NCBI GenBank assembly: GCA_963753435.1
Contig: CAVWCF010000001.1
Span: 992,001-1,056,000, forward strand
Direction: 5' to 3'
From: an uncultured Actinomycetota bacterium
GTDB taxonomy: Bacteria > Actinomycetota > Actinomycetes > CAVWCF01
DNA: 64,000 bases
The notes under the pieces were generated by a model. It did no database searches and was not told where the DNA came from. It worked only from the letters and a program-made list of their open reading frames with translations. Position numbers and translations under genes: made by a program. This document shows positions 1-14,539 of this stretch, piece by piece; position 1 is the first letter of the stretch; each line of letters opens with the position of its first letter.

Positions 1-861
1 GAGGCCGAGTGCCTGCAGATCGCCCGCGACCTGCTGTCGTTCCTGCCGAGCAACAACCTGGAGGAAGCGCCCGCCTTCGGCAGCGAGATGCCGCTGGAGG
101 CGACCGACGAGGACCTGGCGCTGGACACGCTGATCCCCGACTCGGCCAATCAGCCGTACGACATGCACACCGTCATCGAGACGGTGCTCGACGAGGACGA
201 CTTCCTGGAGGTACACGCCCTCTGGGCGCCGAACATGATCTGCGGGTACGGCCGTGTCGAGGGCCGGTCTGTCGGCGTCGTGGCCAACCAGCCGATGCAG
301 TTCGCCGGCACGCTCGACATCGAGGCCAGCGAGAAGGCGGCCCGCTTCGTCCGCACGTGCGACGCGTTCAACATCCCGGTACTCACGTTCGTGGACGTGC
401 CGGGCTTCCTGCCGGGCACCGATCAGGAGTGGAACGGCATCATTCGTCGCGGCGCCAAACTGATCTATGCCTACGCCGAGGCCACGGTGCCGCTGATCAC
501 CGTGATCACCCGCAAGGCTTTCGGCGGCGCCTACGACGTAATGGGTTCCAAGCACCTCGGTGCGGACATCAACCTGGCTTGGCCGACGGCCCAGATCGCA
601 GTCATGGGCGCCCAGGGTGCGGTGAATATCCTGCATCGCAAGGAACTGGCCGCCGCCGATGACGTCGACGCCGAGCGAGCGCGTTTGATCGAGCGGTACG
701 AGGACCACCTGCTCAACCCGTACATCGCCGCCGAGCGCGGATACATCGATGCCGTGATCGAGCCGTCGCAGTCGCGGGTGCAGATCACCCGAGCACTGCG
801 CGCCCTGCACAACAAACGGGCTGACCGTCCCCCGCGCAAGCACGGGAACATCCCGCTGTGA
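1..861 (+). CDS. pccB: Acyl/propionyl-CoA carboxylase beta (carboxyltransferase) subunit, 5'-truncated by window edge
   Basis: Frame is open from base 1; motifs [41 protein letters not shown]-terminal KHGNIPL. Confidence 0.95.
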
Positions 862-1067
862 CGCACCCACGGCCGGACCTACGAATAGTGCGCGGCAACG
901 CCACTGCCGAGGAGATCGCGGCAGTCACGGCCATCCTGGCCGCCCGCACGGCGGCTCCCATGCTGCCCGCGCCCGCCCCCTCGCTCTGGCGAAGGAGCGC
1001 CCGCCGCCTGCAACAGCAACTGCATCCAGGCCCGGGCGCCTGGCGCTCGTCGACGCTGCCGCACTGA
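858..1067 (+). CDS. accE: Acyl-CoA carboxylase epsilon subunit
   Basis: [16 protein letters not shown] motif, ends in PGPGAWR; GTGA overlap with the beta subunit stop. Confidence 0.85.
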
Positions 1068-1075
1068 CCGTCGAA

Positions 1076-1678
1076 GTGACCGCCCGGTTCATCCTCGCGT
1101 CGGCCTCGCCGGCGCGGTTGAAGCTGCTGCAGGCTGCCGGCATCCAGCCGGAAGTCGTCGTCAGCGGTGTGGACGAGGACGACGCGAGCGGCAGCCCGGC
1201 CGAGGTGGCGCTGCTGCTGGCGCAGCGCAAGGCCGAAGCAGTCGCGGCCCGAGTTTCCGCCCCACGCGACGGAAGTGCCCTGGTCCTCGGCTGCGATTCG
1301 GTGCTGGACCTGGACGGGGTCCCCCTGGGCAAGCCCGCAGATGCCGAGGACGCAGTGCGGCGCTGGCATCAGATGGCTGGGCGCAGCGGGGTGCTGCGGA
1401 CCGGACACTGGCTGGTCGACCTGTCCGGGGACCGCGCGGTTGGCGCTGTTGCCGCCACCACGGTCCACTTCGCCCGACCAAGCGATTCGGAGATCGCTGC
1501 GTACGTAGCCACGGGCGAACCGCAACGCGTCGCCGGCGCTTTCACCATCGACGGTCTGGGCGCCTGGTTCGTCGACTCCGTAGACGGGGACCCCGGCACG
1601 GTCGTGGGCTTGTCCTTGCCGCTCCTCCGCGGCCTGCTGGGTCAACTTGGCCACCAAGTCACCGACCTGTGGGTATAG
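1076..1678 (+). CDS. maf: Maf family nucleoside triphosphate pyrophosphatase
   Basis: [33 protein letters not shown] motifs. Confidence 0.95.
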
Positions 1679-1709
1679 CGCCGCGGCGGCGTCCCTAGAC
1701 TCCACGCCC

Positions 1710-3476
1710 GTGCCCCAGATCCGTAAAGTCCTCATCGCCAATCGCGGCGAGATCGCAGTCCGAGTAGCGCGCGCCTGCCGAGACGCGGACATCGGCAGCG
1801 TGGCCGTGTATGCGGATCCGGATGCCGACGCACTGCACGTTCGCGCGGCCGATGAGGCCTACGCCCTGGGTGGGGACACCCCGGGTACGTCGTACTTGGA
1901 CTTCGACAAGGTCCTCGATGCAGCGGCCAAGTCCGGAGCCGATGCGGTTCACCCCGGCTACGGCTTCCTTTCGGAGAACGCCGACTTCGCCCAGGCCGTC
2001 ATCGACGCCGGGCTCACCTGGATCGGCCCGCCGCCGGCAGCGATCCGGGCGCTGGGCGACAAGGTGCAGGCGCGGCACATCGCCCAGGAGGTGGGCGCGC
2101 CGCAGGTCGCCGGAACACCGGATCCGGTGGCCGGCGTCGATGAGGTGGTGGCGTTCGCCGATGCGCACGGCCTGCCCATCGCCATCAAGGCAGCGTTCGG
2201 CGGTGGCGGCCGCGGATTGAAGGTGGCCCGGACTCGCGAGGAGATCCCCGAGCTGTTCGATTCGGCGGTGCGTGAAGCCGTGACCGCGTTCGGGCGCGGC
2301 GAGTGCTTCGTGGAGCGGTACCTGGACCGCCCGCGCCACGTGGAGACCCAGTGCCTGGCCGACAGTCACGGCAATGTGGTCGTCATCTCCACGCGGGACT
2401 GCTCGCTGCAGCGACGACACCAGAAACTCGTCGAGGAGGCACCGGCCCCGTTCCTGTCGGACACGCAGATCGCGGAGTTGTATCGCTCCAGCAAGGCGAT
2501 CCTGGCCAAGGCGGGCTACGTGGGCGCTGGCACCTGCGAGTTCCTGGTCGGCACCGACGGCACCATTTCGTTCCTTGAGGTCAACACCCGACTGCAGGTG
2601 GAGCACCCGGTGTCGGAGGAGGTCACCGGCGTCGACCTGGTCCGCGAGCAACTGCGGATCGCCGCCGGCGAGCCGCTGGGCTACGTCGACCCGCCCATCC
2701 GCGGTCACAGCCTGGAGTTCCGAATCAACGGCGAGGACCCCGGCCGCAATTTCCTGCCTGCACCGGGGCAGGTGACCCAATGGGAGCCACCGAGCGGCCC
2801 GGGGGTGCGCCTGGACTCCGGGGTTGAGGCGGGCTCGGTAATCGGTCAGGCGTTCGACTCCCTCCTGGCCAAGTTGATCGTCACCGGACGCGACCGCGCC
2901 GAGGCGTTGCAGCGGGCCCGGCGGGCCTTGGCCGAGTTCGAGATCGACGGCATGGCCACTGCGCTGACCTTCCACCGGGCCGTCGTCAGCGATGCCGCCT
3001 TCGCCCCGACGGACCCGCACGAGCCGTTCGCGGTGCACACCCGGTGGATCGAGACCGAGTTCGACAACACGATTCCCCCCTACGCCGGCGAGGCCGCGGA
3101 CGGCGGCCACCATGCCGCCGAGCGCGAGCGCCTGGTCGTCGAGGTCAACGGCAAGCGGTTGGAGGTGACCCTGCCGGCCGGGTTCGCGACGGCGAGCGCG
3201 GCACCGACGAAGAAGCCACCCCGTCGGGGTGGGTCCCGCAAGTCCGGGCCCGCCGCGTCCGGCGACTCACTGACCAGCCCGATGCAGGGCACCGTGGTGA
3301 AGATCGCCGTCGAGGAGGGTCAGACAGTCGCCGCGGGTGACCTGGTGGTCGTCCTGGAGGCGATGAAGATGGAACAGCCCTTGACCGCACACAAGGCGGG
3401 GGTGGTAACCGGTCTCGCCTTGGAACTGGGCGCCACCGTGGCCAGCGGCGCGGTGCTCTGCGAGATCAAGGACTGA
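1710..3476 (+). CDS. accA: Acetyl/propionyl-CoA carboxylase alpha subunit (biotin carboxylase plus BCCP)
   Basis: [42 protein letters not shown], biotinyl EAMKME; GTG start 8 nt after TAGACT. Confidence 0.95.
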
Positions 3477-3493
3477 CCCCAAGCCGCCTGTCT

Positions 3494-3537
3494 GCCGACC
3501 AAAGGCCCTGACCGAACGCATCACGTGTCCCTACCGT
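3494..3537 (+). promoter_or_regulatory. DosR/DevR/OsdR-like box (3494-3509) plus -10 element TACCGT (3532-3537)
   Basis: GCCGACCAAAGGCCCT resembles AGGG(A/C)C-N4-GGCCCT; shares GGCCCTGAC and near-identical spacing to the -10 with the hydrogenase promoter. Confidence 0.5.
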
Positions 3538-3554
3538 GCTAGGCGGAGGGCGCA

Positions 3555-5642
3555 ATGTCCGGGACCAGTCGACTGGCTGACGGTGCCGCGCTGGCGGTTG
3601 AGTTGTCGCATTCCGCCGCGCTTGACCCCACCCTGGTCGGCGCCAAAGCGGCCAACTTGGCACAGGCCGCCCGAGCCGGGCTGCCGGTCCTTCCTGGCTT
3701 CACGCTCACGACGACCGCCACTGGCGACCCGAGTGCCCCGCACTGGCCCCCCAACGCCACCGTCGAACCGGCCCTGCGGCAGTTGTGGCAGCAGTTGCAC
3801 GGCGATGAACACGGACTCGTAGTCCGGTCTTCGTCGACGGTCGAGGACATCGGGGCCTCGTCGATGGCGGGGCAATTCAAGTCGGTATCCGGCGTTGTCG
3901 GCTGGCCCAGGTTCGTCGCGGCGGTCGGCACGGTGCTGTCTTCGGCGCATGCCCCTGGACACGGACAGCCGCAACCGATGGCGGTGCTCGTCCAACCTGA
4001 ACTCAAGCCCGCACTCGGCGGGGTCCTGTTCGGAGTGGACCCGGTAACCGGGCAGGAGGATCGCATCGTGATCGAAGCCGTTCGCGGTAGTCCAGAAGCG
4101 TTGGTCTCCGGCACCGCGGCCGCGCAACGAATCGTGTGCGGGCCTCGGGGTCGCGTGCACAGCATCGACGGCCGCGGACCCATGGCCGCTCGCCGCGCCG
4201 GCCGTGCATCCCTCTTGCGACGCCGGCAGATCAGGCGACTCGCGGCCCTGGCGCAGCGAACGGCCGAAGTCTTCGGCGCGGCCCAGGACATCGAATGGGC
4301 GTTGGACGATCAGGGCTCGCTCTGGCTGCTGCAAAGCCGTCCCGTGACCGCGGTCGCCGAACCCGACTCAGCCACCGGCCCGGTCCTTGGCCCCGGCCCG
4401 ATCGCGGAGACCTTCCCGCTGCCGCTACGTCCGCTGGAGCTCGACCTATGGCTGGCGCCGATGCGCGATGGGATCGCCGCAGCGCTGCGGCGCACCCATC
4501 TGAGCACGGCCGCAGAGTTGGACGCTTCGCCAGTGCTCACCACCGTCGGTGGTTGGGCGGCCGCCGACTTGGAACTGCTCGGCTACGTGCCCCCGGGACG
4601 GCGAGCGCTGCATCTGGTCGACCCCCGCCCCGGCGCCCGACGACTAGCTGCCGCCTGGCGCGTCGGGCAGGTTCGCGCCCAGCTCCCGGCTCGCGTGCGC
4701 ACATTGCTGACCGGTACCGACGCCGCTCTCGCCGATGTGCCTGCAGTCACCCAGTTGGACGATGACGACCTGATTCGCGTGGTGGTTCGCGGCCAGGAAC
4801 TGCTCGCGGAACTGCACGAGGCGGAGGTTCTCTCGGCAACACTGAGCGGGCGCGCGCCGGCATCGGTACCCAAGATCGCGCTGGAGCGACTGGCGCACGG
4901 GCGCCGTAACCAGCACCCGGACGACGAGTTGATCGCGCACGACCCAGTGCTCCTCAGCCTGGTGCCGCCACGAATCGCAACGGCACCGGAACTGCCTCAA
5001 GTCGACGACGAGCTGCTCGCCTTGCCCAGCCAGGTAGCCGATCCCGGGCACCGGGACTTGTTGCGGCTGCGAGCCCGCTGGGTGCAGGAACTGCTCAGCC
5101 GGTGCGCCACGGAGGCGGGCACTCGGCTGCAGCAGCGGGGGCTGCTTGCCGATCGACAAGACATTGTTTGGCTTACCTGGCCACAACTTCGGTCGGCCCT
5201 ATCCGGTGACTCGACCCGCCTTGAGTTGCGTCGACAGGAGCCCGGACCTCCCCTTCCGGCCCACTTCCAACTCGACGCGCACGGGCGCGCGGTCAGCGTG
5301 GAGCGGCCCGGTCCTCGTGGCCCAGGTGGCGTGGGCGCCGGAGGTGGGCGCGCCGCCGGCGTGGTGGTCCATGACGCCGCTCGCGTCGGCAGCGGGGATG
5401 TGCTGGTTACCCGGACGCTCGACCCCCGCCTTTCGGTGGTGCTGCCGCGGCTGGCCGCGATCGTGTCGGAATCCGGGAGCACCTTGTCGCACCTGGCGAT
5501 CCTGGCTCGCGAGTACGACGTGCCGGCGGTGGTGGCTGTCCACGACGCCCTGAGCCGGTTCCCACCGGGTTGCCGCGTAGTGGTTGACGGCACCACGGGC
5601 GAGGTCACCGTTGCGCCCGGATCCGAGGAGGTGCCGAAGTGA
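3555..5642 (+). CDS. PEP/pyruvate-binding (ATP-grasp) plus PEP-utilising swivel phospho-His domain protein, RPH/PigC-like architecture
   Basis: VGAKAANL, LPVLPGF, VRSSSTVED..SMAGQF, QDIEWA..LLQSRPVT; C-terminal ESGSTLSHLAILAREY..VVDGTTGEV; GGAGG RBS. Confidence 0.85.
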   Translation: MSGTSRLADGAALAVELSHSAALDPTLVGAKAANLAQAARAGLPVLPGFTLTTTATGDPSAPHWPPNATVEPALRQLWQQLHGDEHGLVVRSSSTVEDIGASSMAGQFKSVSGVVGWPRFVAAVGTVLSSAHAPGHGQPQPMAVLVQPELKPALGGVLFGVDPVTGQEDRIVIEAVRGSPEALVSGTAAAQRIVCGPRGRVHSIDGRGPMAARRAGRASLLRRRQIRRLAALAQRTAEVFGAAQDIEWALDDQGSLWLLQSRPVTAVAEPDSATGPVLGPGPIAETFPLPLRPLELDLWLAPMRDGIAAALRRTHLSTAAELDASPVLTTVGGWAAADLELLGYVPPGRRALHLVDPRPGARRLAAAWRVGQVRAQLPARVRTLLTGTDAALADVPAVTQLDDDDLIRVVVRGQELLAELHEAEVLSATLSGRAPASVPKIALERLAHGRRNQHPDDELIAHDPVLLSLVPPRIATAPELPQVDDELLALPSQVADPGHRDLLRLRARWVQELLSRCATEAGTRLQQRGLLADRQDIVWLTWPQLRSALSGDSTRLELRRQEPGPPLPAHFQLDAHGRAVSVERPGPRGPGGVGAGGGRAAGVVVHDAARVGSGDVLVTRTLDPRLSVVLPRLAAIVSESGSTLSHLAILAREYDVPAVVAVHDALSRFPPGCRVVVDGTTGEVTVAPGSEEVPK

Positions 5643-6427
5643 GTCCCCGTCGGACCCTGTACCAGTTGACGGCACTGGTCCTCGGACTGGTGCTGGCCGG
5701 GTCTGGGATCTACGTGCTGGTCTACCTGGCCCGCTGGGAATGGGTGCGCGCCCAGATCGCGGGGATCTTCTTCCTAGCCGCCTTAGTGGCCCTCGCGACC
5801 GGCCTGATCCTGCGGCGCTTGGATGACCTCCGCTCGACTCCGGGCAGCGCCATCACGCCGGTGGATCCGGTGAGCCCGGCTTCGCCATTCCCCTGGCTGT
5901 ATGAGGCGAAGGGCTCAACGCATGTGTTCCTGCCGGTACTGCTGGGATTCGGCGTACTACTCACCCTGCTCGCAGCCGGGGTAGAGCGGCTTGTGGGCGT
6001 CGCCGCCGGGCCGAGGACCAGGTCACTGGGGACCGAGGAGCCCCCGCCTGCCTGGCCGGTTCGCCTGTTGGTTGCTGTTGTCGCCGTCGTGGTCGCCGGC
6101 GCGGTGGCTTGGGGCGCACTGAACTTGATGACTCGGGAGGAGGAGTCGATCCCCGGGACCCGCATCTACACACTCTCGGTTGCAGAGAACAATGCACTCT
6201 TCGGACCGCAGGCGTCGGCGGAGGAGTTGGCGCTGCTCTGCCGCGACCGCGCGGATCTAGCTGGCCAGGAGTCAAGAGTGCTTGGGGTCGACGGTTCGCT
6301 GGTGAGCCTGCAAGTGACCCCCATCCCGGGCAAGTACGGGACCTTCCGTTTCGATGGCTGCCTACGGGACCTGGTCCTGGACCATCGCTCAGTCAGCATC
6401 GTGGACGTACGCGACACTCCAGAGTGA
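5639..6427 (+). CDS. Hypothetical membrane protein (about 4 TM plus C-terminal soluble domain with two Cys)
   Basis: GTGA overlap with upstream gene, GAGGAGG RBS, four hydrophobic segments. Confidence 0.75.
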   Translation: MSPRRTLYQLTALVLGLVLAGSGIYVLVYLARWEWVRAQIAGIFFLAALVALATGLILRRLDDLRSTPGSAITPVDPVSPASPFPWLYEAKGSTHVFLPVLLGFGVLLTLLAAGVERLVGVAAGPRTRSLGTEEPPPAWPVRLLVAVVAVVVAGAVAWGALNLMTREEESIPGTRIYTLSVAENNALFGPQASAEELALLCRDRADLAGQESRVLGVDGSLVSLQVTPIPGKYGTFRFDGCLRDLVLDHRSVSIVDVRDTPE

Positions 6428-6445
6428 GGCACGCGACGTTGGCTT

Positions 6446-8137
6446 TCAGCCCGGCTCGCTCCAGCTGTAGTCGAGGATCCGCTCGCCGGTCGCGGTGCGG
6501 CCCTCGAAGCGCAGGTCGATCCCATCGCCGCGATCGGTGACCGTGACAAGTCCGAACTGACCGGGGATCAGGGAGACGCCTTCGCTGTATGGCCCGCCCT
6601 TCTCACTCACGTGCTGGTCCACCGGGGCGGCGTGCAGCACGGGGAAGCCGGCACCGCCACGCTGAGCGAAGTCGGAGTTGGTGCCGTCATCTGCGGCCAC
6701 CATGTGCGCATCGCCGGCCAGCATCACCACCCCGTCGATGCCCTCCTCGGCGATGAAGTCGGCCATCTGCTCGCGTTCGCTGGCGTAAGCACCCCAGTCG
6801 TCGCCTGGAGTGGCCGACCGGTCGATCCACGGAACCGAGGAGACCCAGACGATCACCGGGTACTTACCGTTGGCGGCGCGGAATTCGTCCTCCAGCCACG
6901 CCTTCTGCGCGGAACCAAGCATGGACTTGTCCGGTCCGTCGGGCTGGTCCTTCGGATCACGCTGCGAGCGCAGGTCGGCGAGCAGGAACCGAACGCGACC
7001 GATCGTGAAGGCTTGCGCCATCGGCCCGTCGGAGACCTCTGCGAACGGCAGCGGGTAGTGCGGCACGAAGGATCGGTAGGCCGCCAAGGCCGCAGGTCGC
7101 GACGGCGAGTTCCGATCGGCGTCGTTGGGGCCGTAGTCGTGGTCATCCCACATGTAGGCGACCGGTACGCGCCGGAACAGGTCGGCGGCGGCCGGTTGCG
7201 TGATCTGCCGGTCGTAGTCCCGCTTGAACTGGCCGACATCGTCGGCGGCGATGTCGCCGTAGAAGAAGTCCCCGGTGATCAGATGGAACAGCGGATCCGC
7301 CTCGGCGATCGTCGTGTAGGTCTGGGCATTGGAGCCACTGCGCGCACACGAGGCGAACGTGAACTGGAAACTGGCCGCACCCTCCGGCGCGGTCCGCAGC
7401 CGCCCCACCCCTCGGGTCGTATCCAGGGCGCCGCCGACCTCGACCGCATAGGTGTAGTCCGTGTCTGGTGCCAGCCCGTCCAGGTCGAACTCGACGACCG
7501 CTTCCTCAACAGCTGAGGGCACCCCGGTTACCGCCGGGTCGGCAATCGTGGCCGCGGCTCCGGCTGCGTAGTGCAGCCGCACCTCGGCCGTCGGCTCGTC
7601 GGCGAGTGCGGCGACCACGCGGGCACTGTCCGTGGCGATCGCGCCCGACCAGACCCATTCCACCTGGCCCATCGGCAGTGCGACCAAATCCGACTGGGGG
7701 GCTTTGGGTCCATAGAAGTGGTCGAAGATTCCGTCCGCGGTGAGTCCGCCGGCGATCAGCAGGGCCGCCAGGCCGGCGGCGAGCAGGCTGCGAGCGCGCA
7801 ACGAACGGCCGCGCCGCCACGTCCACCAAAGGGCAGCCGCCGGCACGAACAGAGCCGCCATCAGCAGGAAGCCGCGCCACGGCGGGAACTCCACGGTCGC
7901 CAGGGCGCCGATCGCGACCGCGCTTACGGCCAGAATCGTTGCCCCGGTGGCGGTGAACCTGAATGCCAGCCCCCACCCGACGACGTAGACCAACAAGAAG
8001 GCGGCTTGCGCCAGCGTCTCGAAGAACCCGGACTCCCCCGACGTCGGGATCCCGACGACGATCGCGCCGACCGCGAGCGCCGCAGCCGCTGCCGGCGCCC
8101 AGACCAGGGCAAGCAGTCGCAGCGGGTCGCGGTTCAC
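6446..8137 (-). CDS. phoD: PhoD-family alkaline phosphatase with N-terminal multi-pass membrane region
   Basis: FTFASC, GDFFYGD, WDDHDY, MLGSAQKAWL, DDWGAY..ER, LAGDAHM motifs. Confidence 0.85.
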   Translation of the reverse strand: MNRDPLRLLALVWAPAAAAALAVGAIVVGIPTSGESGFFETLAQAAFLLVYVVGWGLAFRFTATGATILAVSAVAIGALATVEFPPWRGFLLMAALFVPAAALWWTWRRGRSLRARSLLAAGLAALLIAGGLTADGIFDHFYGPKAPQSDLVALPMGQVEWVWSGAIATDSARVVAALADEPTAEVRLHYAAGAAATIADPAVTGVPSAVEEAVVEFDLDGLAPDTDYTYAVEVGGALDTTRGVGRLRTAPEGAASFQFTFASCARSGSNAQTYTTIAEADPLFHLITGDFFYGDIAADDVGQFKRDYDRQITQPAAADLFRRVPVAYMWDDHDYGPNDADRNSPSRPAALAAYRSFVPHYPLPFAEVSDGPMAQAFTIGRVRFLLADLRSQRDPKDQPDGPDKSMLGSAQKAWLEDEFRAANGKYPVIVWVSSVPWIDRSATPGDDWGAYASEREQMADFIAEEGIDGVVMLAGDAHMVAADDGTNSDFAQRGGAGFPVLHAAPVDQHVSEKGGPYSEGVSLIPGQFGLVTVTDRGDGIDLRFEGRTATGERILDYSWSEPG

Positions 8138-8139
8138 GG

Positions 8140-9522
8140 CTACCCCCTCGTGTGCAGTTGCCGTGCCGCTTCGGCGATCGAACCGGACAGCGACGGGTAG
8201 ACAGTGAAGGAGTGGGTCAAGTCGTCCACCGTCAGCCGCTCCTCGACCGCCATCGCGATCGGGTAGATCAACTCACTGGCGCTCGGCGCGACGACGACCC
8301 CACCGATGACGATTCCGGTCGACGGCCTGCAGAAGATCTTCACGAATCCGTGCTCAAGCACCTGCATCTTGGCGCGGGCGTTGGTTGCCAGCGGCAAGGT
8401 CAGGGCGCGCCCGTCCACGCGTCCGGAGTCGACGTCCTCCTGCGTGGCCCCCACCGTGGCTATCTCGGGGTCGGTGAAGACCGTCGAGGAGACCAGTCCC
8501 GGATCCAGTGGCGCCACGGCATCACCAAGGGCGTGCCACATCGCGATCCGTCCCTGCATGGCCGCCACCGACGCCAGCATGAGCACGCCGGTGCAGTCCC
8601 CAGCGGCGTAGACACCGCGCGCCGACGTGCGCGAGACCTTGTCCACGCGCACGAATCCCGCTTCGTCGGTGGCCACGCCGCCCACGTCCAGGCCCAGGTC
8701 CGTCGTGTTCGGTATCGAACCAACAGCCAATAGGCAGTGTGTGCCCTCGATCACGGTGCCGTCGGTCAACTGCACGCGCACCGAATCGCCGTCGCGGCGC
8801 ACGCTTTGTGCCCGGGACCGGCCGAGGACCTGCATCCCCCTGGTGGCGAAGACCTCTTCCAGGACAGCGGCCGCGTCCGCATCCTCCCCGGGCAGCACGC
8901 GTTGCCGACTGCTGATCAGCGTGACCTGCGAACCCAGCGCGTGATAGGCGGAGGCGAACTCGGCCCCGGTGACACCGGAGCCGACAACGATGAGGTGTTG
9001 GGGCAGTTCGGTGAGCTCATACAGCTGTTCCCACGTGAGGATGCGTTCGGCGTCGGGAACAGCATCGGCCAGTGTTCGCGGGCTCGCGCCCGTGGCGATC
9101 AAAGCCACGTCAGCGGTGAACTCGGCCCCGGCGTCGGCACCGGTGTGGACCTCGATGCGGTCATTCGTGGCGAGACGGCCGTGCCCGTGGAACAACCGAA
9201 CGCCTTCGGCGCGCAGCCGCTCGGCGATGTCGGCGGACTGCGCCGACGCCAAGTCCTTGACCCGCTTGTTGACCGCAGTCAGATCCACGGCCGCCACGCC
9301 CGGCAGTTCCACGCCCAGCGTTTGTGCCCCGCGCAGCCGGGTCATCAGCTCTGCGGTGGCGATCAGCGTCTTGCTTGGTACGCAGTCGGTGAGCACGCAG
9401 GAACCGCCGAGACCGCCGGAGTCCACGAGGCTGACCTCGGCCCCCAATTGGGCGGCCACCAGGGCCGCCTCGTAACCGCCAGGTCCGCCGCCGATGATCC
9501 CAACTCGCGTCACAAGAACCAT
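8140..9522 (-). CDS. lpdA: NAD(P)H-quinone dehydrogenase (mycobacterial LpdA-type flavoprotein disulfide reductase)
   Basis: IIGGGPGGYEAA, CVLTDCVPSK, VGSGVTGAEFA, C-terminal TVYPSLSGS. Confidence 0.92.
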   Translation of the reverse strand: MVLVTRVGIIGGGPGGYEAALVAAQLGAEVSLVDSGGLGGSCVLTDCVPSKTLIATAELMTRLRGAQTLGVELPGVAAVDLTAVNKRVKDLASAQSADIAERLRAEGVRLFHGHGRLATNDRIEVHTGADAGAEFTADVALIATGASPRTLADAVPDAERILTWEQLYELTELPQHLIVVGSGVTGAEFASAYHALGSQVTLISSRQRVLPGEDADAAAVLEEVFATRGMQVLGRSRAQSVRRDGDSVRVQLTDGTVIEGTHCLLAVGSIPNTTDLGLDVGGVATDEAGFVRVDKVSRTSARGVYAAGDCTGVLMLASVAAMQGRIAMWHALGDAVAPLDPGLVSSTVFTDPEIATVGATQEDVDSGRVDGRALTLPLATNARAKMQVLEHGFVKIFCRPSTGIVIGGVVVAPSASELIYPIAMAVEERLTVDDLTHSFTVYPSLSGSIAEAARQLHTRG

Positions 9523-9574
9523 TGTTCCGTATCCAGCCCCGGTATCCGTCCGGCGATCCGGCTACCGTCGCGGT

Positions 9575-11209
9575 GTGAGCCAAGTTACGTCGAACGAGGA
9601 ACTGATCGCGCAAGCGCGGGCCTGGGCCGCCGATGACCCCGACCCGCAGACCAGGGCCGAACTGCTGGCCCTGATCGACGCGGAGGACGCTGACGAGCTG
9701 GCCGACCGGTTCAGCGGGATGCTGCAGTTCGGCACAGCGGGGCTGCGCGGCGAACTCGGTGCCGGACCGAACCGAATGAACCGAGTGGTCGTAGCCAAAG
9801 CCGCAGCCGGGCTGGCCGCATACGTACTGGACAACGGCGGCCACGCCGTGGTCATCGGCTACGACGCCCGCCGAAACTCCGACGTCTTCGCCCGCGACAC
9901 CGCGCAAGTCCTCACCGGTGCCGGACTGTCCGCGATGGTGTTGCCGGAGCCGCTGCCGACGCCGGTGCTGGCATTCGCCATCCGGCACTTGGGCTGCGCC
10001 GCGGGCGTCATGGTGACCGCATCTCACAACCCGCCCAACGACAACGGGTACAAGGTCTACGTCGGCGACGGCTCACAGATCGTGCCGCCGACGGACGCCG
10101 ACATCGCCGCGCGCATCGCGGCCGTCGGCGACGTCAGCGCCCTGCCCCGCGGCGACGAATGGGTGACCCTGGGTGACGAGGTGCTGGCCGCCTACCGCGA
10201 ACGCGTGCTCTCGCTGGTGAACCCCGCTGAACCCAAAGACCTGTCCATCACGTACACCCCGATGCACGGCGTCGGCGGCGCGCTGCTGGTGGACGTACTG
10301 CAGCGAGCCGGGTTCGCGGCGCCGGCCGTCGCGACGGAGCAGTTCGCGCCGGACCCGGCGTTCCCGACGGTCGCTTTCCCCAACCCGGAGGAACCCGGGG
10401 CCATGGACCAGGCCATTGCCACGGCCGAGGCCAACGACGCTGACATCATCCTGGCCAACGACCCCGACGCCGACCGGTGTGCCGTGGGCATCCGCGGTGA
10501 GGCCGGCTACCGCATGCTGCGTGGCGATGAGGTCGGAGTGCTGCTGGGCGACTACCTCATCAACAGGGGTGCGCGCGGCACGTTCGCCAACTCGATCGTC
10601 TCCAGTTCGATGCTGGGCCGGATCTGCGCCGCGGCCGGGGTCCAGCACACGGAGACGCTGACCGGGTTCAAGTGGATATCCAAGGTTGAAGATCTCGCCT
10701 ACGGGTACGAAGAGGCGCTGGGGTACTGCGTCGACCCGGACGGGGTGAACGACAAGGACGGGGTCAGCGCCGCACTGCTCATCGCGCAACTGGCGGCCGC
10801 GGAGAAGGCGGCTGGGCGGACCCTGGCGGACACGTTGGACGATCTGTATCGACGTCACGGCCTGCACGCCACCGACCAACTCTCGGTCCGGGTGGAGGAC
10901 TTGTCGCTGATATCCGCGGCCATGCAGCGGCTTCGCACCGATCCGCCGACTCGACTGGGTTTCGGCCCGGTGCTGGGCCTGGACGACCTGAGCCGTGGTG
11001 ATGGCGGGCTTCCCCCCACCGACGGACTGCGCTTCCACCTGGATGGGGGTCGGGTGATCGTGCGGCCATCGGGAACCGAGCCGAAGTTGAAGTGCTACCT
11101 GGAAGTCGTGATCGAGGTGACCGACTCGCTGCAGCAGGCACGCAGCTTGGCAGCCGAACGGCTCGCGGCCCTGCGTGCTGACATCGGCGCAGCAACGGGC
11201 CTGGCCTGA
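9575..11209 (+). CDS. Phospho-sugar mutase (PmmB/PGM2-like; possible phosphopentomutase)
   Basis: FGTAGLRG, TASHNP, DPDADR, GYEEALG, RPSGTEPKLK; GTG start after TACCGT. Confidence 0.92.
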   Translation: MSQVTSNEELIAQARAWAADDPDPQTRAELLALIDAEDADELADRFSGMLQFGTAGLRGELGAGPNRMNRVVVAKAAAGLAAYVLDNGGHAVVIGYDARRNSDVFARDTAQVLTGAGLSAMVLPEPLPTPVLAFAIRHLGCAAGVMVTASHNPPNDNGYKVYVGDGSQIVPPTDADIAARIAAVGDVSALPRGDEWVTLGDEVLAAYRERVLSLVNPAEPKDLSITYTPMHGVGGALLVDVLQRAGFAAPAVATEQFAPDPAFPTVAFPNPEEPGAMDQAIATAEANDADIILANDPDADRCAVGIRGEAGYRMLRGDEVGVLLGDYLINRGARGTFANSIVSSSMLGRICAAAGVQHTETLTGFKWISKVEDLAYGYEEALGYCVDPDGVNDKDGVSAALLIAQLAAAEKAAGRTLADTLDDLYRRHGLHATDQLSVRVEDLSLISAAMQRLRTDPPTRLGFGPVLGLDDLSRGDGGLPPTDGLRFHLDGGRVIVRPSGTEPKLKCYLEVVIEVTDSLQQARSLAAERLAALRADIGAATGLA

Positions 11210-11255
11210 GACTGGCCTGGGCCTGGCCGGTACCGGAACCGGCCACGCCGGGTGC

Positions 11256-12233
11256 ATGACGTCGTACGCTGAACCGGTGAGCGTCGCAACGGACTGGTCT
11301 GGGCGCATCGAAGAGATCACCACAGACGACACCACCTTGCGCCGGTTCCTGCACGGGCTGCCCGGCGTGGACCAGGTGGGGGCCGAGGCGCGCGCAGCCG
11401 ACTTGGCGACGCGGTCCATCAAGACCACGGCGAAGTCGTTCGGCATCGACCTGGCGATCCGCATGGTGGACCTGACCACGTTGGAAGGCCAGGACACCCC
11501 CGGCAAGGTGCGCTCGCTGTGCGCCAAGGCGATCCACCCGGACCCGACCGATCCCAGCGTTCCGGCAGTCGCCGCAGTCTGCGTCTACGGCGACCTGGTG
11601 CCGATCGCCAAGCAGGCGCTAGCCGGCAGTGGCGTGCATGTGGCGGCCGTAGCGACCGCGTTCCCATCCGGCCGCGCCTCGCGAGCGGTGCGACTGGCCG
11701 ACACCGCCGAGGCCGTGGCAGCGGGGGCAGACGAGATCGACATGGTGATCGACCGTGGCGCCTTCCTGTCCGGTCGCTACCTGCAGGTCTTCGAGGACAT
11801 CGTCGCCGTCAAGGCCGCGTGTGGCGACGCCCACCTCAAGGTCATCCTTGAGACCGGGGAACTGGCCACGTACGACAACGTCCGTCGCGCCTCCTGGCTG
11901 GCCATGCTTGCTGGCGCCGACTTCATCAAGACCTCGACCGGCAAGGTGGCACCGGCAGCGACCATGCCGGTGACGCTGGTGATGCTCCAGGCGGTCCGGG
12001 ACTTCCGCATCGCCACTGGTCGGCAAGTGGGCGTCAAACCGGCCGGTGGTATCCGCACCAGCAAGGACGCGCTGCGCTACCTGGTGATCGTCAACGAGAC
12101 GGTCGGCGAAGACTGGCTGGACCCGGCGTGGTTCCGTTTCGGCGCATCGAGCCTGCTCAACGACCTCCTCATGCAACGGCAGAAACTCAAGACCGGGCAC
12201 TACTCCGGCCCCGACTACGTCACGTTGGACTGA
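11256..12233 (+). CDS. deoC: Deoxyribose-phosphate aldolase
   Basis: DLTTLEG, GADEIDMV, LKVILETGEL, ADFIKTSTGK, GVKPAGGI, RFGASSLL. Confidence 0.95.
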   Translation: MTSYAEPVSVATDWSGRIEEITTDDTTLRRFLHGLPGVDQVGAEARAADLATRSIKTTAKSFGIDLAIRMVDLTTLEGQDTPGKVRSLCAKAIHPDPTDPSVPAVAAVCVYGDLVPIAKQALAGSGVHVAAVATAFPSGRASRAVRLADTAEAVAAGADEIDMVIDRGAFLSGRYLQVFEDIVAVKAACGDAHLKVILETGELATYDNVRRASWLAMLAGADFIKTSTGKVAPAATMPVTLVMLQAVRDFRIATGRQVGVKPAGGIRTSKDALRYLVIVNETVGEDWLDPAWFRFGASSLLNDLLMQRQKLKTGHYSGPDYVTLD

Positions 12234-12236
12234 TAC

Positions 12237-13679
12237 ATGACCGCTTTCGAGTACGCACCCGCGCCGGAGAACCGCGCCGTCGTGGACATCCAGCCGTCGT
12301 ACGGCCTGTTCATCAACGGCGAATTCGTGGACGGGTCGTCCGGTCGGGCCTTCAAGACTGTGGACCCGGCCACCGAAGAGGTGCTCGCCGAGGTCACCGA
12401 GGCCGGCGCCGACGACGTCGATGCCGCCGTGCGTGCGGCGCGCACGGCCTACGACAAGGTCTGGTCGCGCATGTCGGGCACAGAACGGGGCAAGTACCTG
12501 TTCCGAATCGCCCGGATCCTGCAGGAGCGGGCCCGTGAGTTCGCCGTCCTGGAGACCTTGGACAACGGCAAGCCGATCAAGGAAAGCCGGGACGTGGACG
12601 TGCCCTTGGCCGCCGCGCACTTCTTCTACCACGCTGGTTGGGCCGACAAACTGGCCTACGCCGGCTTCGGGCCTGACCCCAAGCCGTTGGGCGTGGCCGG
12701 ACAGGTGATCCCGTGGAACTTCCCCCTGCTGATGCTGGCCTGGAAGGTGGCCCCGGCACTGGCCGCCGGAAACACCGTCGTGCTGAAGCCGGCCGAAACC
12801 ACACCCCTGACCGCGCTGCTGTTCGCGGAGGTATGCCAGCAGGCCGACCTGCCTCCCGGCGTGGTGAACATCCTGACCGGAGCCGGCGAAACGGGAGCCG
12901 CGGTGGTCGGGCACCCGGACGTCGACAAGGTGGCGTTCACGGGCTCGACCGAAGTAGGCAAGCGGATCGCCAAGGCGATCGCCGGGTCGAAGAAGAAGGC
13001 CACGCTCGAGCTCGGCGGCAAGGCCGCAAACATCGTCTTTGACGACGCGCCCATCGACCAGTCGATCGAAGGAATCGTTCGCGGGGTCTTCTTCAACCAG
13101 GGGCACGTGTGCTGCGCCGGCACCCGACTGCTGGTTCACGAGCCGGTGGTCGATGCGGTCCTGGAATCACTCAAGCGTCGGCTGGGCACCCTGCGTCTGG
13201 GCGACCCGATGGACAAGAACACCGACATCGGTGCCATCAACTCCAGCGTGCAGTTGGAGCGGATCCGGCAGATGAGCGAGATCGGGGAGGCCGAAGGCGC
13301 GCGCCGGTGGTCGGCACCGTGCGAGTTGCCTGACCGCGGCTACTGGTACCCGCCGACGGTCTTCACGAACGTCTCCCAGAGCCATCGCATCGCCCGCGAG
13401 GAGATCTTCGGGCCGGTACTCAGCGTGCTTACCTTCCGCACCCCGGCAGAGGCACTGGAGAAGGCCAACAACACCCCCTACGGCTTGTCGGCCGGGGTCT
13501 GGACGGATAAGGGCAGCCGGATCCTGTGGATGGCCGAACGGCTGCGGGCCGGCGTCGTCTGGGCGAACACGTTCAACCACTTCGACCCGACCTCACCGTT
13601 CGGCGGGTACAAGGAATCCGGGTACGGACGGGAAGGCGGCCGCCACGGGCTGGCCGCCTACCTGCGGACGGAGTACTGA
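12237..13679 (+). CDS. Aldehyde dehydrogenase, catalytic subunit (ALDH16 N-terminal-like)
   Basis: IPWNFP, KPAETTP, FTGSTEVG, LELGGK, catalytic FNQGHVCCAG, EEIFGPV. Confidence 0.93.
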   Translation: MTAFEYAPAPENRAVVDIQPSYGLFINGEFVDGSSGRAFKTVDPATEEVLAEVTEAGADDVDAAVRAARTAYDKVWSRMSGTERGKYLFRIARILQERAREFAVLETLDNGKPIKESRDVDVPLAAAHFFYHAGWADKLAYAGFGPDPKPLGVAGQVIPWNFPLLMLAWKVAPALAAGNTVVLKPAETTPLTALLFAEVCQQADLPPGVVNILTGAGETGAAVVGHPDVDKVAFTGSTEVGKRIAKAIAGSKKKATLELGGKAANIVFDDAPIDQSIEGIVRGVFFNQGHVCCAGTRLLVHEPVVDAVLESLKRRLGTLRLGDPMDKNTDIGAINSSVQLERIRQMSEIGEAEGARRWSAPCELPDRGYWYPPTVFTNVSQSHRIAREEIFGPVLSVLTFRTPAEALEKANNTPYGLSAGVWTDKGSRILWMAERLRAGVVWANTFNHFDPTSPFGGYKESGYGREGGRHGLAAYLRTEY

Positions 13680-14539
13680 TGGCGCGCGAAGAGATCCGCA
13701 AGACGTACAAGCTCTTCATCGGGGGCAAGTTCCCCCGGTCGGAGTCGGGTCGCTCGTACCTGGTGTCAGACGCCAAAGGCCGTTTCGCGGCCAACGCCGC
13801 GCAAGCGTCGCGCAAGGACGCGCGCGACGCGGTCCAGGCCGCCCGGAAGGCCTTTGCCGGATGGTCGGGCGCCACGGCCTACAACCGCGGCCAAGTGCTG
13901 TACCGCGTTGCTGAGGTCATGGAGGGTCGCCGCGCTCAGTTCGTGGAGGAGGTTGGCGCCACTGAGGGGTTGTCTGCGCGCAAAGCCGCAGCAGTGGTGG
14001 ACACCGCCATCGACCGCTGGGTCTGGTACGCCGGCTGGACCGACAAGTTGGCTCAGGTCGACGGATCGGCGAACCCGGTCGCCGGGCCCTTCTTCAACTT
14101 CTCCGTGCCAGAACCAACCGGTGTCGTGGCCGTGATCGCACCGCAGTCGTCGTCCCTGCTGGGGCTGACCTCGGTGCTGGCACCGGTGCTGGTCCCGGGC
14201 AACACCGCGGTTGTCTTGGCCGCGCAGGACCGACCACTGCCGGCGATCACGCTGGCTGAGGTAATGGCGACCGCCGACGTACCGGCCGGCGTCGTCAACC
14301 TGTTGACGGGCACGACCACCGAGGTTGGCCCCTGGCTGGCGTCGCACTCCGACGTCAACGCCATTGACCTGGCCGGGGCCGGTGAGTCTGCGGCGGAGTG
14401 GGAGGCCGCGGCTGCCGACAACGTCAAGCGCGTTCTTCGGCCTTCCGCCACCGAGCCGGATTGGAACGCCGTTCCATCCACGCAGCGGATGCGTGCGTTC
14501 CTGGAGACGAAGACCGTCTGGCACCCAGTAGGCACTTGA
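13679..14539 (+). CDS. Truncated aldehyde dehydrogenase-like protein lacking the catalytic domain (ALDH16 C-terminal-like)
   Basis: KTYKLFIGGKFPRSESGR, EPTGVV, GVVNLLTG; no ELGGK or catalytic Cys; ends ETKTVWHPVG; TGATG overlap. Confidence 0.88.
   Translation: MAREEIRKTYKLFIGGKFPRSESGRSYLVSDAKGRFAANAAQASRKDARDAVQAARKAFAGWSGATAYNRGQVLYRVAEVMEGRRAQFVEEVGATEGLSARKAAAVVDTAIDRWVWYAGWTDKLAQVDGSANPVAGPFFNFSVPEPTGVVAVIAPQSSSLLGLTSVLAPVLVPGNTAVVLAAQDRPLPAITLAEVMATADVPAGVVNLLTGTTTEVGPWLASHSDVNAIDLAGAGESAAEWEAAAADNVKRVLRPSATEPDWNAVPSTQRMRAFLETKTVWHPVGT

Follow-up and report, generated by a model that had tools for sequence, protein, structure and literature searches.

A kinase of rifampin phosphotransferase architecture coupled to a membrane protein and a variable phosphatase in Actinomycetota

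Introduction

What does a dikinase-type enzyme act on when it lacks a pyruvate-binding barrel and its gene overlaps that of a membrane protein? The question is raised by a stretch of 64,000 nucleotides (nt) from an uncultured Actinomycetota bacterium (assembly GCA_963753435.1, contig CAVWCF010000001.1, positions 992,001 to 1,056,000 of the forward strand; the whole stretch is hereafter called the window). A gene for an enzyme of 695 amino acids (aa) is followed there by one for a 262-aa membrane protein (the partner), and the original prediction, made from the sequence alone, proposed that the two form a phosphotransfer or ligase system for which no function had been described. Our results show a real and conserved unit, in which a new clade of the rifampin phosphotransferase (RPH)-type kinase superfamily belongs to an undescribed membrane module with a variable phosphatase. 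We further propose, with a probability of roughly 0.45, that the kinase docks on the membrane by way of its partner, that a lipid-like hydroxyl is phosphorylated there and that an outward-facing phosphatase reverses the reaction. A literature search with few subscription papers in reach found no description of the enzyme–partner pair, in keeping with the prediction, and the accessible part of PMC12419801 does not mention a dikinase.

Results

Enzyme and partner are strictly coupled

The locus contains the following genes:

3555..5642, + strand: phosphohistidine kinase of RPH architecture (dikinase type), 695 aa; open reading frame (ORF), Pfam/NCBIfam, model, structure comparison
5639..5642, + strand: GTGA stop/start overlap of enzyme and partner; 4-nt overlap kept in 43/46 two-gene loci
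5639..6427, + strand: membrane partner, 262 aa, no Pfam/NCBIfam family; ORF, model
6446..8137, - strand: PhoD-family phosphatase, 563 aa, with N-terminal membrane helices, the third component here; ORF, Pfam

The GTGA overlap, read as translational coupling of the two ORFs in the original prediction, is not particular to the window. We assembled 47 partner loci, namely the window, L001, L002, L091 and every strong match from the genome samples; most were selected through the partner and many are kin. Excluded from the counts were L003, where the enzyme is cut off by the end of its contig, the loci L092 and L093, on contigs shorter than 1.4 kb, and the weak partner matches (E above 1e-6) G544, G566, G581, G656 and G710. 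Enzyme sequence lies directly upstream of the partner in 46 of the 47 loci, 43 of them with the identical overlap, so that the two genes are anything but rare neighbours. Without four unpublished genomes (L124, L143, L144, L145) the figures are 42/43 for the coupling and 25/43 for an adjacent phosphatase.

In a sample of 400 further genomes from the phylum, 14 had the partner and 12 the central domain of the enzyme, all 12 among the 14; both genes are adjacent in 11 of these 12 and separated by a contig break in the other. The two partner-positive genomes without the central domain carry decaying copies, in which both genes have been damaged or lost together: a C-terminal enzyme remnant stands beside a partner with a stop codon (G247), and the enzyme is gone beside a broken partner (G403). 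Genus g32 gave 9 strong matches in 101 genomes. None of 77 loci examined around more distant RPH-like enzymes contained the partner. We also noted frameshifts, due to either assembly error or decay, that break enzyme or partner in L135, L156 and L164, many further enzymes of RPH architecture that are about 750-950 aa long and lack the partner (L004-L080), and 10 matches in each of G005 and G014, suggesting several RPH-architecture paralogues per genome.

Once flanks shared by kin are set aside, the neighbourhoods contain no recurring carboxylase, ligase substrate pathway or response regulator, and the substrate is therefore more likely to be a general cell component. An upstream rifamycin-associated element is a mark of RPH genes of clades A-C. 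In a k-mer scan of 34 upstream regions of the present loci no word occurred in more than 8, and no common motif was found beyond close kin. Two related genomes share an upstream block encoding unnamed 247-aa and 212-aa proteins and an NAD-dependent epimerase (L001:1409-4723, L003:1-4693), and flanking hydrolases were seen at single loci (a sulfatase, L146:3664-5181; a secreted nucleoside-hydrolase-like protein, L152:7231-8253).

The enzyme is a shortened relative of RPH

Within the enzyme we distinguish these features:

3582..4364, + strand: ATP-grasp domain, about residues 10-270; Pfam, invariant residues, structure comparison
4365..5309, + strand: central substrate-binding domain, about residues 271-585, about 110 residues shorter than that of RPH; model and alignments
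4587..4679, + strand: basic/aromatic segment, residues 345-375, a candidate membrane- or anion-binding surface; family charge profile
5052..5066, + strand: R500-D501-x-x-R504; ungapped register against RPH R666-E667-x-x-K670
5319..5618, + strand: swivel phosphohistidine domain, H646 codon at 5490-5492; Pfam, conservation, structure comparison

Pfam places PPDK_N at residues 70-269 (E 1.9e-31) and PEP-utilizers at 613-682 (E 2.7e-19), which bears out the N-terminal ATP-grasp and C-terminal His swivel domains originally read from the sequence; the chain stops at residue 695 and hence has no pyruvate-binding barrel. H646, within the motif SHLAILARE, is kept in 93/93 homologues. The ATP-grasp residues K31, R91, Q147, E247, Q260 and R262 are likewise invariant (93/93), position 110 is S or T in 93/93, and the RPH ATP-site residues K22, R117, T136 and E297 thus have their counterparts in K31, R91, S/T110 and E247. 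R500 and R504 are present in 93/93 homologues, with E (79) or D (14) at position 501 and Arg at the position of RPH Lys670; this register was read ungapped from an aligned helix end, a low-confidence global HHalign alignment not itself placing the motif at this position. In RPH, R666 and E667 are needed for the second phosphotransfer, according to the accessible part of PMC4844700. The family has further invariants in R508, E512 and D338, with H421 in 92/93. Residues 345-375, which include a conserved Trp, are its most cationic stretch (mean net charge +5.6 per 18 residues).

The AlphaFold2 model, built with 93 homologues, has a mean pLDDT of 88.6. Its best structural match is RPH (5hv1; VIA-align Z 26.1, 612 residues, 21% identity, root-mean-square deviation 10.8), and Foldseek gives E 6e-26 at 18% identity. 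The domain order of RPH and PigC, recognized from the start, is borne out, and the fold of RPH is matched over all three domains. As the alignment is longer than both end domains together, the central domain, which the original prediction could not name, can now be identified as a homologue of the RPH substrate-binding domain. It is a shortened one, at about 315 residues against about 428 for the rifampin-binding domain in the accessible part of the RPH literature, and most of what is missing belongs to the arm-2 region, according to a profile alignment of low confidence. Used as sole query, this domain retrieved 204 proteins, of which the named ones are all actinobacterial. Among the named hits for the system are the cultured, non-pathogenic carriers Thermomonospora umbrina and Geodermatophilus; database labels on such enzymes read 'pyruvate, water dikinase' or 'rifampicin phosphotransferase'.

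Domain order, ATP-site residues, phosphohistidine and second-site motif would thus place the enzyme in the superfamily of RPH/PigC architecture. By family score it is neither RPH, PigC/RedH nor PEP synthase: the NCBIfam bit scores are 124 for RPH (NF041857; cut-off 999), 144 for RedH (1350), 112 for PigC (1300) and 111 for PEP synthase (740), far below what an ordinary PEP synthase or rifampin kinase would reach.

RPH-Lm (5HV1, 5FBS; PMC4844700, accessible part) and the enzyme share domain order, three-domain fold, ATP-grasp residues, catalytic His and the Arg-acid-x-x-basic motif. They differ in structural identity (18-21%, where clade A requires more than 42%) and in the central domain, which falls short of the full three-subdomain rifampin-binding domain described there for clades A-C. 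They differ also in gene context, the enzyme being encoded with the partner and usually a phosphatase, whereas the 77 loci around longer RPH-like enzymes lack both. The substrates of most clades of the superfamily are given as unknown in the same source. The prodiginine ligases PigC, RedH and HapC have the same domain order and His-mediated phosphotransfer, but, as far as the accessible part of PMC13534948 goes, they are proteins of about 880-910 aa from pigment clusters that condense two substrates; the enzyme loci, in contrast, are not in a pig/red cluster. The aromatic dikinases HpeHI/AcvAB (9GOJ; PMC12624787, in part) are also AMP-forming superfamily kinases with a pathway phosphatase (HpeD/AcvF), and 9GOJ matches the ATP-grasp domain at Z 20.2; they consist of two subunits and cluster with a carboxylase, whereas the present enzyme is a single chain without a recurring carboxylase neighbour and comes with a membrane partner and a phosphatase anchored in the membrane. 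Rv2047c (PRK05865; PMC2443190 and PMC7058343, both in part) is an actinobacterial swivel-domain protein whose C-terminal part matches residues 493-687 of the enzyme (E 7e-14). Where the enzyme has its ATP-grasp, Rv2047c carries an N-terminal reductase-like domain; its gene shares an operon with pks12, and its activity as a kinase is a proposal. The phosphorylation of a lipid chain put forward in PMC2443190, to judge from its accessible part, is a printed but untested precedent. PEP synthase and PPDK share the ATP-grasp and swivel domains but have a pyruvate-binding barrel, which the enzyme lacks.

The partner is a membrane protein without a named family

The partner is composed of a three-helix N-terminal module (residues 1-123, with the motifs YxxxYLxRWEWxRA, FxW and VFxP), a linker, an anchor helix and a ferredoxin-like domain predicted to lie outside (model pLDDT 82.9). 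Its four hydrophobic helices, together with the Cys residues C201 and C241, fit the four membrane segments and C-terminal Cys pair originally described. No Pfam or NCBIfam family was found, 84 members giving weak generic matches only (best E 4.5e-4); Pfam matches to holin-X and Wzy_C were rejected as weak generic hydrophobic similarity. Foldseek found no match to the fold at E 0.001 or better, no Atlas neighbour is named, and the resemblance of the C-terminal domain to ACT-like and SecDF periplasmic ferredoxin folds (Z about 8, best 8.9) is generic. The family is nonetheless large, with 654 clusters at 50% identity (E 1e-10 or better). Across 141 diverse partners the conserved positions are Y25, Y29, RWEWxRA, F84/W86, VFxP, G103/G105, E116, C201, R237, C241 and D244, and conserved polar residues (Y25, Y29, R32, E34, R37, E49, S109, E116) lie in or near the helices. 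No His column reached 70% in these sequences, and the partner is therefore not a PTS-like relay acceptor.

In 84 sequences the anchor helix is preceded by 2.7 K/R and 0.4 D/E on average and followed by 1.8 of each; since it is more basic before than after, the Cys-bearing domain is predicted outside. Since the N-terminus, too, is basic, re-entry of one of the four helices is possible. The partner occupies at least two reading frames in 22/47 loci, of which 19 appear to be real two-gene splits, the second gene with its own anchor, and 3 are apparently broken. The apparent long forms P0077, P0325 and P0200 were read as mis-called extensions, not fusions. A plasmid search for the partner gave no match.

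The slot usually holds a membrane-bound phosphatase

In the window the genes lie between a biotin-carboxylase gene (1710-3476) and a flavoprotein reductase gene (8140-9522). The original prediction had the pair inserted between accA and lpdA; the slot holds three genes, the PhoD phosphatase gene, tail-to-tail with the partner gene and 18 nt past its stop, having been overlooked. The slot is variable: in G002, a member of the same family, about 1.06 kb separates the flanking genes, and the gene between them is a different, unrelated one (L165:8470-9533), whose product has one anchor and a tail rich in Gly and Asp; the assembly is frameshifted there. A search of 30 close relatives with the window query did not find a full-length orthologue. 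No deviation of GC content was seen at the locus, Rfam gave 0 matches in positions 1-14000, a promoter and terminator scan stayed at chance level, and 0/4 proteins matched PADLOC anti-phage defence models. Contigs from three estuary RNA runs (two samples) contain short low-depth pieces of all three genes, which cannot show transcription or co-transcription and were not used.

A membrane-anchored or membrane-embedded phosphatase stands beside the pair in 29/47 loci and belongs to one of four unrelated families: Cys-dependent DSP (PF22741; 22), calcineurin-like (PF00149; 4), PhoD (2; the window and L147) and PAP2 (1). Of the DSP genes 21 are tail-to-tail and one is two genes upstream; the 23 tail-to-tail phosphatases have a median gap of 9 nt, and the phosphatase is on the opposite strand in 27/29 loci. 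The 77 loci around distant RPH-like enzymes, taken as controls, gave three weak DSP matches (E 1e-4 to 6e-4) and 0 for the other two phosphatase references. The anchors of 21 DSP proteins have 3.5 K/R and 0.1 D/E before the helix and 1.2 and 0.8 after it, an asymmetry from which the phosphatase domain is predicted outside. The proposed two-gene system thus keeps its strict enzyme–partner coupling, but it is usually three-part, and the partner is often split in two.

The PhoD protein of the window scores 86.4 bits with PF09423 (cut-off 27) and contains C, GD..D, DDHD and GDAH, which we take to be the PhoD metal-ligand motifs. Its residues 108-117, arginine-rich with an RR pair ahead of the last membrane helix, may presumably serve as an internal Tat motif of the kind seen in actinobacterial proteins co-inserted by Sec and Tat. 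The DSP alignment shows an invariant Asn within the membrane helix and, at the C-terminus, a conserved helix of basic character (SRxLDxPRR), either of which possibly contacts partner or lipid; in L141:5547-6164 and L144:1376-2134 the His before the catalytic Cys is replaced by Asn, Cys and Arg being kept. Pairwise identities of enzyme and DSP are correlated (Spearman 0.68, 20 loci; nearest neighbours agree in 5/20), with kinship uncontrolled, and were not used.

Discussion

The chemistry of the enzyme can be sketched by analogy with RPH: ATP would yield phospho-His646, AMP and Pi, and the swivel domain would carry the phosphate to the R500/D501/R504 site. We propose that residues 345-375, together with the FxW loop of the partner, hold the kinase to the inner side of the membrane, and that the acceptor is a hydroxyl on a membrane-resident, lipid-like molecule. 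The partner would then transfer or expose the product at the outer face, where the separately encoded phosphatase would remove the phosphate, the outcome being a write/erase cycle, complete in itself, for a lipid phosphate of the cell envelope. That the acceptor resides in the membrane and that the mark is reversible is suggested by the basic aromatic segment, the coupled membrane protein, the lack of recurring pathway genes and the fact that all the phosphatases are membrane-bound, taken together. The most specific form of this proposal, a trans-membrane cycle in which the dikinase is an inner-leaflet lipid kinase, the partner serves both to present and to move the lipid phosphate, and the mark is erased by an outer phosphatase of exchangeable family, is doubtful.

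Several observations weigh against the write/erase cycle. The analyses made gave no substrate evidence for the enzyme. The hydrophobic moment of the basic segment is just moderate (0.36) for a membrane-docking surface, and an N-in/C-out partner needs an odd number of spans, yet four helices are hydrophobic. No phosphatase is adjacent in 18/47 loci (one at a contig edge, two broken, one with a DSP elsewhere, nine of genus g32 and five others); genus g32 lacks it in all 9 loci, and the DSP subfamily was not found elsewhere in 10 phosphatase-less genomes searched. In favour of a link, the 7/401 genomes that contain this subfamily (E below 1e-80) all have the pair as well, in one case with the phosphatase gene on a separate contig; two weak matches fell in pair-negative genomes. 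However, 5 of the 7 had supplied the DSP profile and 6 of the 7 are from one family. The PhoD family of the window is also present in 3/250 other genomes without the enzyme subfamily. In a FastTree phylogeny of 41 enzyme sequences, whose deep support is weak, both PhoD loci fall in a single branch, so they possibly reflect one event. Finally, phosphatases of the PhoD, purple-acid-like, PAP2 and phytase-like kinds often scavenge phosphate with broad specificity.

One alternative is salvage, in which the outer phosphatase would free an alcohol from an environmental phosphate ester, a carrier or the partner would import it, and the kinase would trap it by re-phosphorylation. An outside phosphatase, a membrane protein and an inside kinase are arranged as in known routes, nicotinamide riboside uptake for one; the interchange of four phosphatase families suggests low specificity, and the partner has its conserved polar residues in or near helices. 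Yet no transporter or catabolic gene recurs at the module, a phosphatase on the opposite strand implies a separate transcript, and three helices are few for a transporter; we consider salvage unlikely, though worth keeping in view. Transmembrane signalling would give the outer ferredoxin-like domain the role of a ligand sensor that switches the kinase towards a protein or messenger, with the phosphatase destroying the ligand or resetting the system. Convergent kinase and phosphatase genes would permit opposite regulation and the fold resemblance of the partner domain is in its favour, but a Z of about 8 may reflect common arrangement only. With no conserved His in the partner, no regulator recurring nearby and a central domain of small-molecule-binding fold, signalling seems to us quite unlikely.

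Detoxification, with the kinase inactivating a membrane-partitioning antibiotic or lipophilic compound presented by the partner and the phosphatase being incidental, draws on the nearest structure, a resistance kinase, and on the patchy distribution (14/400 genomes; g32 9/101) and variable insertion site. The RPH score so far below its cut-off argues otherwise, as do the loss of rifampin specificity in distant RPH clades and the one tested member without resistance (PMC4844700, accessible part). An adjacent phosphatase, moreover, would undo the inactivation, and we regard detoxification as improbable. A ligase of PigC/RedH type, in which phosphate merely activates a carbonyl for the membrane condensation of two substrates, would explain the identical domain order and the top NCBIfam match (RedH, E 5e-42). 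That match, however, spans the end domains only, no biosynthetic genes recur nearby, and the phosphatase would be needless; such a ligase strikes us as very improbable. Of the two activities originally offered, phosphotransfer is thus favoured, reversible phosphorylation being the better fit to the usual phosphatase neighbour.

A strictly coupled membrane protein and a four-family phosphatase slot are an unusually strong context for a clade of this superfamily, and they make its chemistry directly testable. If the trans-membrane cycle is true, it would be the first lipid kinase of RPH fold, together with a new flippase or presenter family. The system may yield a new envelope lipid phosphate, a new family of membrane transport or sensing, and a function for genes now labelled 'pyruvate, water dikinase' or 'rifampicin phosphotransferase'.

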